A stretch of DNA of 64,000 nt from sequence record NZ_LC532224.1; one strand, 5' to 3'. Shown here piece by piece: positions 18,001 through 27,000 of this stretch (position 1 is the first letter of the stretch; each line of letters starts with the position of its first letter). Position numbers: made by a program. The DNA is from a plasmid.

Positions 18001-21000
18001 AGATTATCCCGCCTTTGGCTAACCATTCTTATGAGCATCAGCTTTTCAAAAGCTGATGCTTAACGTAGAGAAGTATCGTAACATTGCAATTCCTCAATGC
18101 GACAAGTGACAGAGTTTATGCCTGATATTGATTTGAATGACGTGATTAAGGCGCTGGGAAACCCTGTTAGAAGAAAAATTCTGCATATGCTCAAGGAACC
18201 GAAAATACACTTCCATCAGCCTTATGCTGATGCGGACGAGTTCGGTGTGTGTGTCAGTATCATTCAGGAAAAGGTCGGGCTCTCACAGTCTACCGTTTCT
18301 CTTTACCTCTCAGCTCTTCAACGGGCACAACTTGTTACTTCTCAGCGCATCGGTCCCTGGACGTACTACAAACGTGACAATGATAAAATAAGGGTTGTTC
18401 TTGAGTTGCTGAAAAATACAATCTGATACAGGACTGAGCACATTCAGTGTAACAGTACCGGGGGTTCGTACTTGCGATCCCGGCAGGCATTCCATGAAAG
18501 CGCACTAATTCCTCAATATCAGGCTGCAGACCGGTCATAAGAGGCTAATAGTTTTGCAAAATATCCACCAGTTTGGGTCAAATCACTCTGTCGGTTGGTG
18601 TGCATACTCGGTGCAAGGACCTGCAGATATTTAAGATGGCGGATAGCTTGTTACAGTGCCGCTGATGACATTCCGACCCTGTTGCCGTCCGGGTAAGATA
18701 ATACCTCTGACAGCGGTCATAAAAGCCCAACATAATTGTCTTTCGAGCCATATATTAATCGCTCATCGCGCTCTCTTTTTCGAAGAGGTGTCACTTAATC
18801 ATGATCGGTCAGTACAAAAAGACAGTGCTTTTCCAAATTCCGGACGGTTGTATGCGAAAACGGTGAAGCTCAACAAATGGTGTCATCGCTGTGCAATGCT
18901 CTGCGGGCTCATTCTTTCAGTTAACTGTTTGGTTACAGCTTCAATGAAGTATTTCAGTTAATTCACAGCGAGGGTTTGAGGAAACCACGCTGTGATTACC
19001 CAACGCTCATCCGGAGCATCCGGATTGAACTGTCGCTGGAGCTTGTTGGGCGACACGATACTGGCCTCGCCTTTACATGCCCTCGGGCTCCGGTATCCGA
19101 CCTGAGCCTTTATCCCGACACGTTTCATCAGTCGCCAGACTCTGTTCACTCCGCACTGTTGCCCGCTGTCCCGCAGATCCAGATGGATTTTGCGATAACC
19201 ATAGACGCATCCCGATTCCAGCCAGAACTGTTTAATCTGTCCTGTCAGTCTCAGGTCTGCCTGATGGCGTTGTGAATGCGGCTGCTGAAGCCAGGCGTAA
19301 AAACCACTGGGATGTTCATCCAGCACCCGACAGAGCAGGCGAACAGGCCAGCAATAGGTGTTGTCACGAATAAAGGCGTACCTCAGTCGGACAGCTTTGC
19401 GAAGTACGCCGCGGCTTTTTTTAATATGTCCCGTTCGTCGGTAACCCGCTTCAGCTCTTTCTGAAGACGGCGGATCTCGGCCTGAGCATCTGACTGTTCT
19501 TTATTAGTGGAAGAATCCGGACCGTAGTTCTTTATCCAGGCGTAAAGGCTGTGGGTGGTGATATCGAGACGCGTTGCAACGCTGGCAACAGAATAACCGC
19601 GATCAACAACCTGTTTGACTGCTTCAATTTTAAACTCTTCAGGATAACGCTTACCGCTCATGGGCACCTCTCTTTAAGTCATCTTAAATGACTCTGAGGT
19701 GTCTGTTAAACCTGTGGCGATTCACCTCGCGTCCTTCCGTTCAGTATAGCCTCAGTCCCTGACACCACCCGAGAACGGAATGACGTCCCCTTTCTCCCTC
19801 CCGGTGTTGCGTTCAAGCTCCCTGACATACTGCTGTAAAAGTATAAGGTTATGTAACAGCTCTACATTTTCAGCCATCATCTTTTTGATTTCTTCCCTCA
19901 GCTCATTTCTCTGACGGCGATACTTTTCTTTCAGCTTGATCTGCTGCTCAATGCCCTGCTCATCAACCGGCGCGGTGCCCTGGCACGTTTTTTTCAGACT
20001 GCGGATAGCCTCCCTGACCTGCCTGTACTCAGGACAGTTATAATTCAGGGTGCCGTTTGCCAGCCCCGCTCGTTTTTCCACAGCATACTGGCTGATACGC
20101 TCCCCTGATAACATCAGTTCCCTCAGGGCCTGCTCTGCTCTTGCCTGTGTTTTTTTAACCCCCGACTGTTCGTTCGTCATGCTCTATTCATCCTTTTCAA
20201 AAAAACGGACAGCATCTGCATAAAAATCTCTCTCAAGCATCAGAAAATCCCTGTCAGCCTGAGGAGCATTATTTCGCACGGCAATCTCCAGAAGGTTGTC
20301 ATAATGAGCCATCCTGCGTTTCCACACGGGAACAGAATCAGCTCCGGCCAGCATGTTCTCACATCCCGGATTGCAGGACGCTGACTGAACAACCGCCTTA
20401 AACTCGCAGTCATGGCCATTCATGCAATAAAAACCGTTTCCAAGAGATACCAGTTTTTGCCCGCCTCGTTTAGCCATGCTCATCGCTTTTTTCAGTGTAG
20501 GAAACGTCATCTGATGTAAGTGCCCACCTCTCTGGGACATCAGTAACTTCCCGCCTTCGCCATAAAGCAGGCCTTCATGCTGATAAGAAACAGCCCTGGA
20601 AGCTGAGAGTTCGGTATCAACCCTCTCAATCTCGGCAGCGAATGCCTGAGGGATCGCCCGGCTAAAATGCGAAGCGTTGAGTGCACCGGACATATACCAC
20701 TCCGTCATGCCTCTGATTAAGTGCTTAAACTGCCGGATAAGATCATTAGTAGAAATCAGATCAAGACGCCTGAGGTGTACAGCAAGTGAACGGCGAAACT
20801 GATGGGTTCGCAATGGCCAGAAAGCCCCCTCCCGAATCTCCATCGCAACGCGTTCATCATCACGTATGTTTGGATTTAAAAGCCTGAACTCATCAATATG
20901 GTCACGTCGGATGAACAGATGGTGTCTTTTCACAAATTTCTTTGCCCACTCAGTCTGGCGCTGCGTCCCCATAAAAGAGAGTTTTTGCTCCGAGAACCAC

Positions 21001-24000: not shown

Positions 24001-27000
24001 CCCATGACAGCACATTTTCGGCCATCCACGTTATCTGCGTTTCACTCCGGCTCATATATGGCTCCATCGCGACCTGCAGCACCGTCAATCAATGCGTCCA
24101 TGACCCCGGCGACTGCATCAGAAATCTGGTTTTGCTGAAGAAAGACGATGTATTTCATCGTCGTATTTTCGCTTTTATGGCCCATCCAGTATTTTACTGT
24201 ACCCAGCGCATTTGCGGCCTGATCGGGATAGCAACTCAGTGCCGAGCGTAAAAAATGGGTCGCAAACGTTGCCCGCAAATCATGGGGTTTATGTCTGAAC
24301 ACATTTCCCGGAGCAGACCGGGCCAGGCGATGGCGAAAACTGTACCAGCGGGAGTAAAAGGCTTTTTCAGACATCCGTTTCCCGTTTGCCATTAAAAATA
24401 AAGGCTCGTGCCGCCCTTCCCCACCCTGTCGTGCACGCCATTTTTGGATCTTCTTTTCATACTCCTCATCCGCCAGATAATCCAGAACCTGCTCGTACAA
24501 TCGTCTGGTGATGAAGAGTTCTCGCGTCATCCCAAACTTCGTATGAACTCCGCATCTCGGACCAATATGAAGCCCCCTGATGGTCAACTCAGATACAGGG
24601 ACACTGGCAAGGTACTCTTCAGTAAAGAGTGACGACGGCAGGGTCAGCATTTCATCCAGCCGTAACCCACAATTTTTCATCAGCACAATCATTAAACTGA
24701 ACAACCCGGACTCAGATTTCAGTGCCTCATCCAGGATATGAACCTCTGCATCATTCAGTGGGTTGATTGTCCTTTTTGTTGTGCTGGTTATCCTGATGGC
24801 AAGATCCGAACTTATCACCTTGCGTCGCCCGTCAACGACTTTTTCGACCAACGTAAAAAATGAGCTGGCAGCCAGCTCACCACACTTGCCCAGAAATACG
24901 TAAAACCGTCGGATAACGCTGATGTACACCGCCGCGGTGGATGAGGCGATGCGCCCCTGCCTTACGGCCCCCAGAAGATACTCCCTGAAGCCATATGTAG
25001 GGCTTTGGTATTTCAACGTTCCCGGGGTGAAAGGGTCAAGTCCGTTATCCTCCAGCCACCTTATCCAGCGTAAAAATGCCCGGGCTAAAGGCTTTAAATC
25101 CCTGGCCTGCAGGATAGCTTTATCCATAAGATAAAAGTGTACATATCGGCTCAGTTTTCGATTCTGGATGCCGCTAATATAAGGTATTTCAGCATACAGA
25201 AATCCGGGTTCAAATTTCAGTTTCGGCTCTGTTGCATCCAGTTTGCTGACACGCCCATAACGCGCATGAATGTTAGTGATTATCCTCACAGTCTGTCGCC
25301 CTGAAACGCCACCTCATGCCTACACTATAAATCCGGAAGAAGAAAAAACAAACAACCAGGTTGCCGGGAGTGAATATGCAAATCAGGAGGAAAGTAAAAG
25401 ATGTAACGACACCATCACGATGCAATACATTGACCTCAACACGTTACCCGGACCATACGTGATAAACATCACAAATCCTTTGAGTGAAGAACTTAAGATG
25501 TGATTTTCATTTCCCGGCACAAACCGTGCCCTTAAAAAACAGGCAACGGATACATCTTAATGCCAGAAGTAAACCTTAATTGATTGAATACAGCCTGAGT
25601 CCATTGCAAAAATAACACACAGGGTAAATTCGCATATACAGAACCCAACGAAAAGCAAAAGAAACCTGTAACACATTTCGTTTACCTGTCACTTTCAATT
25701 GTAAAAGCCAGCAGAAAAAGCGCATATAACTATATTTATCCCTGCGGGGACTTTTGTTTGTGCTATATATTTTTTACAGAGAACCGCAACGCGTCCAAAC
25801 ACAAGAATATATTTACCTCTGGAAAATGGTCTGACTCCCTTTCACGTGGTTGTAGTGACCTGTTCTGTGATTCATGTAATGTCTTTTCTGGATGAGGAAA
25901 ATATGTCATCACTGATATTTTATACAGACGAAGCACAAGCACTGATTGTAACAGATACCCTTGCCGTCACCGATAATGGGGAGCCGTTATCTTTTGTTTC
26001 CAAAGCAGGTTACATCCCCCAGCTAAGAACCATCATAGCAGGTACGGGGGCAGGTGGATTTTCTAACACCTGGTTGCTTGAAGCATCAACCAGAATGGTC
26101 GTATCAGGTATACAAAATCTCAATTATCATACATCGGCCTGTCTAAGGAGGCTGTGGAAACAATACAAGCATGACCATGCAATTCCCTCTTCTTCAACGG
26201 TGACAACCAGTGTTTATCAGTTCGCAATTTGCGAGGAAACAGGAAATATCGTTTCGTTCGCCTATCGCTCAGTCCATGATTTCGAATCAGAGCAATTACA
26301 ATACGGAACAGGAGTAAAACCTGAGTGCCAAATCCTGGATGGGGATTTGTTGCAGACAATTCCTGTAATGATGAATGAACAAAGGGCTATACAGGCGACA
26401 TACTCACACCCGGAACGGATCCATATTGGCGGTGAGATGATTGCGCATTATCTGACATCATCTATGTATCAATGCTTTAAGATTGGGGAATTTGAGGATT
26501 TCAGAACTCAGGGAGAGTATATATTGAGCAGGATTTAGGCAAAACGCGGTTCAGATAAAGTGCTTTTAACAGGCTTGCTGAACATTAAAAGGATATCTCT
26601 CAATTACGATGAATAGCTTGAATTCTAAAAATAGAAAAGTAGAGTTTAACTCTAAATACATAAAAACAAGAGTAAGCGAGCACCCATATCGAGCCCCACA
26701 AGCTGATGTTCGAGTGGGTTTCTCCGGCGACCAGATACACTCCCCGGTGGCGTCTTTATAAAGCGTTGCCAGGCTGAAGTTATCCGGCATAAAGCTTGGT
26801 AAAGGGAAGCGTGATTCGGAACCACAGGCCATCAGAAAAGACCAGATGTCCTGAGTGCGCCACTCCTTTACCGGATAGAGTTCACCACCGTGCTCAGTCA
26901 GGGTTACTTTCCTCGCCTGCCCTCCCATTTTGAGGATATTTCCTGCCCTTCGGGCACTTTCATCATCCCTGGAGCCCAGCATCAGGCATACCCTGCTTCG

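Follow-up and report, generated by a model that had tools for sequence, protein, structure and literature searches.

We analyzed a window of 64,000 nucleotides from a plasmid (sequence record NZ_LC532224.1, one strand read 5' to 3'; all positions are those of this whole stretch) and found at 19752-25289 four minus-strand genes that we assign to an SE (strand-biased circularizing integrative element), a mobile element with the gene order intA-tfp-intB-srap near its terminal motif C and with its cargo to the left, inserted into a gene of an IncHI2-type plasmid. We put the probability of this reading at roughly 0.88. It builds on the gene order, the pattern of catalytic residues, homology, the ends of the element, its two target sites, and the pattern of footprints that it leaves, all of them observed in the sequences compared. 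SEs as a kind of element are already known; this one is a new member, delimited here for the first time with its termini, targets, and cargo. A preliminary description of the same DNA had recognized an unannotated integration module with several recombinases at one end of a large, site-specific island, and this part of it stands; its assignment of the module to the GInt (ginABCD-like) family does not, for reasons given below.

The four genes form one conserved block. In the order of their transcription, they are intA (24042-25289, 415 amino acids), which encodes an ordinary tyrosine recombinase; tfp (22289-24055, 588 amino acids counted from M12); intB (20184-22301, 705 amino acids), which encodes a predicted large tyrosine recombinase; and srap (19752-20180, 142 amino acids), which encodes a small helical or coiled-coil auxiliary protein. 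The co-directional open reading frames (ORFs) lie on the minus strand where they had been placed before, including the mechanical ORF of 599 amino acids at 22289-24088 that contains tfp. All full-length homologues of the tfp product start at M12 and are 588-589 amino acids long, and RefSeq annotates the gene likewise. With this start, the overlap with intA is 14 bp; the 47-bp overlap reported earlier is the product of a mechanical TTG start. The 13-bp overlap between the 599- and 705-amino acid ORFs was borne out, but the ATGA overlap described between intB and srap is really a 3-nt gap (TAG-agc-ATG). Scanning the module for promoters and terminators yielded nothing beyond shuffled expectation.

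To place the four proteins, we compared them with one reference from each of two families. The SE reference is the core on the tmexCD1 plasmid pHNAH8I-1 (L009), whose tfp identifier, WP_034039553.1, is the one listed for SE-PaeBT2436; the GInt reference is the operon ECs_3509-3512 of E. coli Sakai, which appears in the ginC/ginD table of PMC10214605. IntA has the HxxR and catalytic Tyr boxes that had been noted in it (H336-x-x-R339 and Y380); together with R210 and H371 they make up a complete RHRHY set, and the protein passes Pfam PF00589 (Phage_integrase) with 35.9 bits against a cut-off of 27.1. In BLASTP, it is 28% identical over 389 amino acids to IntA of SE-PaeBT2436 (E 3.6e-16). IntB, which has no Pfam match, is linked by BLASTP to IntB of SE-PaeBT2436 (23% over 205 amino acids, E 5e-11). 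In an alignment of homologues that includes the SE-PaeBT2436 protein, its residues R357 (within SGMRHSE), H500-Q-F-R503, H527, and Y536 are invariant. The IntB family profile reaches two PF00589-bearing proteins among 5.8 billion sequences (E 2.3e-6 and 4.6e-4), and in a single-sequence search of PDB sequences its box I aligns weakly to a solved integrase, 3nkh (E 0.16), the sole match that such searches gave. We read IntB as a large, catalytically complete tyrosine recombinase.

The second protein, Tfp, is where the pattern breaks. The earlier claim of three tyrosine-recombinase-like proteins holds for the 415- and 705-amino acid products, which have the complete catalytic set, but the 599-amino acid product lacks Arg I and His II. 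In the alignment of 39 diverse Tfp homologues, the box I Arg is replaced (Y-T-W-G-N, with Asn at the Arg position) and the box II His is not conserved; R396 (Arg II) is largely kept and H419 (His III) is often kept. Invariant in the same homologues are K295 and R297 of the beta-hairpin, Y428 in the position of the catalytic Tyr, and the cysteines C487, C514, C520, and C523. The C-terminal cysteines have a CADxxxCxxC arrangement, and IntB has a conserved C-terminal cluster of its own (C626, C632, C643, C647); the conservation of both clusters suggests zinc binding. A recombinase fold for Tfp is weakly supported here: the N-terminal region aligns to the core-binding region of IntA (hhalign E 3.3e-4), the protein matches the integrase profile phrog_1 (E 0.0028), and Tfp of SE-PaeBT2436 has a sub-threshold match to PF00589 (25 bits) that covers the Asn and Tyr positions. 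A stronger basis for the fold is a published Phyre2 analysis of the Tfp of SE-6945, which matched it to recombinases with >93% confidence.

The Tfp family is rare, with 170 cluster representatives in 1.84 billion proteins. Homologue searches with the proteins returned few relatives (11, 6, and 8), so that the family alignments are shallow; comparing them with hhalign brought the expected motifs into register without significance, except for the core-binding regions of Tfp and IntA. The alignment profiles of IntB and Tfp matched nothing significantly among PDB sequences. A search of representative sequences linked the C-terminal region of Tfp (about residues 375-588) to longer proteins as well, of 600-830 amino acids. 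Srap is helical and has a sub-threshold match to the Pfam family DUF6262 (24.9 bits against a cut-off of 29).

Two published families have a four-gene architecture of this sort, GInt (PMC5385486) and SE (PMC10214605), and the position of the degenerate gene tells them apart. In GInts, ginA and ginB match the integrase catalytic core and the third gene, ginC, is degenerate (PMC5385486; PMC10214605). In SEs, IntA and IntB have the RHRY residues, and Tfp, the second product in the order intA-tfp-intB-srap, has a recombinase fold without them (Nonaka 2018/2022; Idola 2023, PMC10214605). In the window, it is the second gene that is degenerate, with a full RHRHY set in the third; this is the SE order and not that of GInt. 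Protein sizes follow the same division: 415, 588, 705, and 142 amino acids in the window compare with 429, 576, 679, and 140 in the SE-PaeBT2436-type core and with 401, 437, 543, and 132 in the Sakai GInt. The BLASTP matches to SE-PaeBT2436 fall position by position for IntA, IntB, and Tfp (not for Srap), while the same four proteins show no similarity to Sakai ECs_3509-3512 (best E 0.66). On PF00589, the Sakai proteins behave as expected of a GInt, GinA scoring 66.9 bits, GinB 43.9 bits, and GinC giving no match.

That the module is nonetheless a GInt, with three integrases and GinD excising and integrating as in the Pseudomonas Pht-PAI family, is in our view very improbable. Its appeal lies in the shared plan. 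GInts have the operon at the 5' end, the cargo after the small gene, an AT-rich 3' end, and imperfect flanking repeats of 10-17 nt (PMC5385486), and they have been reported in Enterobacterales (PMC10214605); here too there is a terminal operon with cargo after the small gene and an AT-rich far end, and the flanks carry imperfect repeats of about 11-12 nt, AAAGGAGCACCC and AAGCGAGCACCC. This plan is common to GInts and SEs and therefore does not discriminate between them. The order of the genes and the sizes do, and the published clusters speak the same way: GinC and Tfp, and likewise GinD and Srap, form separable clusters, and SE and GInt genes have no BLAST similarity to each other (PMC10214605). 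In near-identical plasmid and chromosomal copies of our element, including the one on pEclE4-1, tfp and srap carry the RefSeq identifiers WP_007897920.1 and WP_017384060.1, and both are in Additional file 3 of PMC10214605, which holds tfp/srap orthologues, with 360 and 404 text matches. The element is not among the 37 SEs with defined termini in that paper, and none of the papers in the collection that we searched describes it on IncHI2 plasmids or in ygiQ.

We next turn to the ends of the SE. Published SEs have imperfect inverted-repeat termini of 13-19 bp, named C and C'. The intA-proximal terminus, motif C, lies at 26656-26674 on the plus strand (ATACATAAAAACAAGAGTA) and ends in ..GAGTA, like published SE termini ending in ..GTA. 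It is followed on the same strand by a 6-bp spacer, AGCGAG (26675-26680), the same as in the uninterrupted target on R478 (the attB-derived 'fingerprint'), and then by the 5' part of the target gene on the minus strand (26681-27618), a PAPS-reductase-family gene with a PF01507 match that is intact in R478 at 794 amino acids. The junction thus reads ...ATACATAAAAACAAGAGTA / AGCGAG / CACCCATATCG..., and the mechanical ORF at 26566-27618 continues for about 37 junk codons into the spacer and the element. Similarity to the R478 empty site and to the E. coli chromosomal copy in ygiQ stops at 26674, and the motif C terminus abuts different flanks at 14 loci. The attachment end had been expected to the right of the operon, where it is, but in the AT-rich 25.3-25.9 kb stretch, about 0.8-1.4 kb from where we find it. 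The true end lies 1.39 kb beyond intA, past a divergent ORF of 211-230 amino acids (25846-26538, plus strand) that is present in every copy examined. This ORF has no Pfam match; it matches phrog_13702 (E 2.6e-37), a 218-amino acid profile for which the label 'terminase large subunit' is doubtful.

The far end was located on pEclE4-1 of Enterobacter hormaechei, where the element is 35.7 kb long and both halves of the target gene are present. There, the far end starts CACCCTATAATTCTGATC and the C' end reads CACCCTATAATTCTG... Window positions 1-29001 are collinear with pEclE4-1 except for a group II intron; it follows that the window starts inside the cargo, about 11.3 kb short of the far end (motif C'), and that the cargo extends to the left past the start of the window, as had been proposed. 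Another candidate source for the far end, pENT-1f0b (L002/L004), was set aside, as it is rearranged by resistance regions. Read from the outside in, motif C is TACTCTTGTTT.. and motif C' is CACCCTATAAT.., with tips TACTCT.. and CACCCT.. (YACYCT). The motif C side of the copy in E. coli 214-4 is broken up by an IS3 element.

The occupied sites seen are of two kinds only: the ygiQ DNA that codes for a CX3CX2C motif, in several hosts, and the PAPS-reductase gene of IncHI-type plasmids. Comparison with relatives that lack the element, which the preliminary description had recommended, gave an empty site for each, intact in R478 and in ygiQ of E. coli W5-6, the empty chromosomal site. The ygiQ target encodes the radical-SAM motif ..RGCFGGC/SFC.. 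(CX3CX2C), and the plasmid target encodes ..GARYGC/SL... One chromosomal copy, in E. coli 2021CK-01361 (NZ_CP107720.1, about 778.2-842.1 kb), is about 64 kb long and splits ygiQ; window positions 8834-26682 are common to the E. coli chromosomal copy. The PAPS-reductase site is occupied on three diverged plasmid backbones (that of the window and L007, that of L002, typed IncHI1A/IncP, and that of L014). On L002, pENT-1f0b (CP026196.1), and on L014, the element is identical and occupies the homologous position in clearly diverged PAPS-reductase-family genes. The presence of an identical element in diverged genes points to independent insertions into one short target.

A distant relative occupies the ygiQ site too. 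At 2517-11406 of L026 (ENA ERZ25073814, a 4.09-Mb contig) lies an element whose Tfp is 40% identical to ours, inserted at the same ygiQ codons (..GCFGGC/). It has CACCCTATAG at its intA-proximal end, which supports the equivalence of the C and C' arms. The intA-proximal terminus of this relative, CACCCTATAGTTG, resembles the far terminus of our element; its own far end was not found. Twenty bp after its srap, it carries a full-length ygiQ paralogue (694 amino acids, 68% identical to the interrupted host copy), which may replace the gene destroyed by the element.

The hexamers next to the two termini record where copies of the SE came from. By the published rule for SEs, the circle takes its 6-bp spacer from the C-side flank, and integration leaves the target's 6 bp at C and the donor's 6 bp at C' (PMC10214605; bioRxiv 10.1101/2022.09.22.508988). 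The comparative evidence agrees with this rule. At all 14 loci, the C-side hexamer changes with the flanking host DNA, and it equals the hexamer of the empty site wherever that site was read (R478 and E. coli ygiQ). The plasmid gene has AGCGAG, E. coli ygiQ has AAAGAG, and other ygiQ genes have AAGGAG, AATGAG, AAGGAA, or AAAGAA. The C'-side hexamer is never that of the local target; it was non-target in all five of the distinct combinations of footprint and site. In the IncHI2 gene, pEclE4-1 has AAGGAG at C', the C-side hexamer of Enterobacter ygiQ including that of E. asburiae, and p1-Ec387 has AATGAG, the C-side hexamer of ygiQ in L021 and L022. In ygiQ, E. coli ABWA45 and P470 have AGCGAG at C', the C-side hexamer of the IncHI2 site; GPEC349-628 and GPEC1176 have AAGGAG, that of Enterobacter-type ygiQ; and 2021CK-01361 (L005) and 214-4 (L031) have AGTGAA, for which no donor was found. 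We take these footprints to mean that the element entered the IncHI2 gene independently two times or more, coming from ygiQ sites on chromosomes, and E. coli ygiQ three times or more, with the IncHI2 site as the source of one of these insertions. The matches imply that the element shuttles from a chromosome to a conjugative plasmid and on to a new chromosome.

The footprints also bear on how the element moves. Its genes could belong to the SE family and still serve a classical cut-out and paste-in pathway, in which both strands are exchanged and a heteroduplex spacer is formed as in Tn916 or GInt. Resolution of such a heteroduplex would also give a donor-derived hexamer at one junction, and in GInts about 50% of clones have attI sites that acquired bases from the flank (PMC5385486). 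However, a symmetric model predicts a ratio of about 50:50 at each junction, and what we see is a C side that is target-type wherever the empty site is known and a C' side that is non-target in every combination. Donor copies also persist at ygiQ and on plasmids, though sampling would give that too. We consider the cut-out pathway unlikely; the one-sided footprints, drawn from a handful of events, argue for the asymmetric pathway of SEs over symmetric resolution of a heteroduplex.

By analogy with the SE literature, transposition would begin with IntA and IntB (both RHRHY), together with degenerate Tfp and Srap, recombining the two ends with exchange of one strand. The product would be a circular copy with a 6-bp spacer derived from the motif C flank, the donor copy staying in place. 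This circle would integrate at a short target resembling GG(G/C)TGCTC, in ygiQ the DNA for the CX3CX2C motif, after which the target's 6 bp would stand at motif C and the donor's 6 bp would be left as a footprint at motif C'. Having no transfer genes, the element would travel between cells aboard conjugative IncHI2 plasmids. What is said here of strand bias, of a circular intermediate, and of what Tfp and Srap each do is carried over from the published SEs. Going one step further, we speculate that Tfp might occupy the protomer positions that normally cut the second (bottom) strand, so that only one strand would be exchanged, and that this would be the structural cause of strand bias and copy-out in SEs. 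Two further points would fit such a shuttle: the lineage targets the DNA of the ygiQ motif, which opens the chromosomes of many enterobacteria to it as well as IncHI2 plasmids, and its distant relative brings along a ygiQ paralogue. The idea about Tfp is rather doubtful, though if it held, it would explain both properties of SEs, and Tfp would then be no mere DNA-binding scaffold.

Is the copy in the window still mobile, or could it be an immobile relic hitch-hiking on a successful IncHI2 plasmid lineage? It is nearly clonal among plasmids (at least 99.9% identity in 136 of 138), insertion sequences (ISs) and a group II intron have entered the cargo, and SEs have been described as mostly quiescent. 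Against these points, motif C is intact, as is each of the four core ORFs, and near-identical elements occupy at least two kinds of site and three diverged plasmid backbones and have left at least five footprints. The presence of several sites and footprints in near-identical elements indicates repeated recent transposition, and we regard the relic as a quite unlikely explanation.

Several observations weigh against the assignment to the SEs or against parts of it. The BLASTP match between our Tfp and that of SE-PaeBT2436 is marginal (E 0.013), though the two are also linked by shared profile matches, and BLASTP finds no direct match between our Srap and that of SE-PaeBT2436. The AlphaFold2 models of IntB (predicted local distance difference test, pLDDT, 40.6 from a 7-sequence alignment) and Tfp (pLDDT 56.7 from 9 sequences) were not used, and when the Tfp model was compared with the PDB by Foldseek, nothing matched significantly, the integron integrase 2a3v coming nearest (E 0.89). 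Given these low-confidence models and the lack of a significant Foldseek match, the case for a recombinase fold in IntB and Tfp is made by motifs and weak profile links. The inverted repeat of the termini is weak, with about 7-10 matches in 19-21 nt and only the tips AGRGTR clearly common, and motif C is separated from intA by 1.39 kb with an additional ORF, by which the element may differ from other SEs. The tfp and srap identifiers were not found in the portion of the ginC/ginD list that was searched, which is partial coverage of that list. Finally, the footprint AGTGAA matches no C-side hexamer at any occupied site seen, which suggests that a donor site or host of a third kind exists outside the sample.

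The block is nonetheless well conserved and widespread. At 99.9-100% identity, all four genes occur in 138 of 72,556 plasmids, mostly conjugative plasmids of clinical Enterobacter; those inspected type as IncHI2A or IncHI1A. The block is also present in Enterobacter chromosomes and in E. coli, where 7 of 5,426 complete genomes have it, and the index of public assemblies contains the exact 415-amino acid IntA in 23,394 blocks. Gene order and sizes recur around Tfp homologues of only 35-40% identity, which, together with the near-identity of the block across plasmids and genomes, shows that the arrangement is beyond chance. The usual annotation of the element is 'hypothetical proteins plus integrase'. 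A scan of species-representative genomes for the terminus found a single locus, in ygiQ of E. asburiae, and in a tblastn search of the plasmid collection with IntB (E <= 1e-3), neither Staphylococcus nor Enterococcus was among the best 10 of 19 genera. The terminal 776 bp of the far end match 327 plasmids, compared with only 138 for the recombinase module, and p1-Ec387 is among the plasmids that do not appear in the module matches. Given these counts, some plasmids, such as p1-Ec387, may be immobilised remnants that have lost intA-srap but retain the C' end with some of the cargo.

Within the window, the cargo occupies 1-18957 and includes the fghA esterase gene, a group II intron, and a gene for a UvrA-like ABC ATPase, among further genes. 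The cargo encodes frmRA-fghA, a glutathione-independent formaldehyde dehydrogenase, an alkene reductase, and SDR, MBL-fold, and DMT proteins; also present are regulators of the AraC, LysR, and ArsR types, the UvrA-like ATPase, and a KAP P-loop NTPase. The intron (1781-4050), with its ltrA ORF for a reverse transcriptase/maturase (1871-3394, minus strand), is missing from the otherwise identical element on pEclE4-1. Directly downstream of srap lies the remnant of an IS3-family transposase gene (18958-19667, minus strand), which is part of the cargo in all copies and is annotated as frameshifted and partial in E. coli. No relaxase or type IV secretion system gene is annotated in the 35.7-kb element of pEclE4-1. 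The larger E. coli copy in 2021CK-01361 has grown by way of IS1, IS66, IS110, and IS5, which brought lacIZY, fecIRABCDE, and rclA into its cargo.

From 26681 on, the window consists of IncHI2 backbone collinear with R478 (for example at 27784-29075 and 30812-32062), with hypothetical genes, a gene for a site-specific DNA methyltransferase, and a RelE/ParE toxin gene. The GC content of the backbone part is 44.5%, compared with 50.8% for the part of the element within the window.

SEs have been described only recently, are rarely annotated, and are known from only a few papers, and the member described here is widespread. With its ends in hand, a block of 36-64 kb of genes for formaldehyde and electrophile stress can be recognized as one mobile unit. 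Its footprints act as a code from which moves from chromosome to plasmid to chromosome can be traced from sequence alone, and they provide a natural data set that supports the asymmetric mechanism of SEs.

Compared with other known systems, the module is neither of the phage-integrase type nor a Tn554, as had been stated before; sizes, gene count, and motif pattern exclude a phage integrase with accessory genes, Tn554, and the RIT elements. RITs are alike in having three adjacent recombinase-family genes. All known RIT recombinases are of ordinary size (about 300-400 amino acids) with a complete catalytic set, and RITs are not known to include a small fourth gene; neither the sizes nor the motif pattern in the window agree with this. 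Tn554 (tnpA-tnpB-tnpC) is alike in combining one ordinary and one large RHRY recombinase with a small essential protein and in leaving a 6-bp footprint without target duplication (as summarised in PMC10214605), and we count the sub-threshold DUF6262 match of Srap as a further likeness. It has three genes only, whereas here a conserved 588-amino acid gene lies between the two catalytic recombinases; Tn554 has no counterpart of Tfp, and its hosts are Firmicutes. We set it apart on these grounds of gene content and hosts.

GInts are alike in an operon of recombinase-fold proteins with a small helical protein and in attachment sites that pick up flank bases; they are unlike in that GinB of Sakai, at about 440 amino acids, passes PF00589, and the 599-amino acid second protein here fails it. 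The two families are easily confused, being alike in architecture and differing in which gene is degenerate, and the earlier misfiling is corrected on this point. The closest fit is to the SEs (SE-6283, SE-6945, and SE-PaeBT2436), with which our element shares the gene order at the motif C end and the protein sizes, the RHRHY residues of IntA and IntB, a degenerate Tfp, and a small coiled-coil Srap. It also shares with them site-specific insertion, a 6-bp footprint adjoining C', the lack of transfer genes, carriage on conjugative plasmids, and gammaproteobacterial hosts. It differs from them in sequence, its proteins being only 23-28% identical to those of SE-PaeBT2436 and its Srap undetectable by BLASTP, in its targets, ygiQ and the IncHI2 PAPS-reductase-family gene, and in its length of 35.7-64 kb compared with a median of 15.7 kb for SEs. 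Among SEs, this member is thus notable for its size, for its abundance on clinical IncHI2 plasmids, and for a footprint record of repeated moves.

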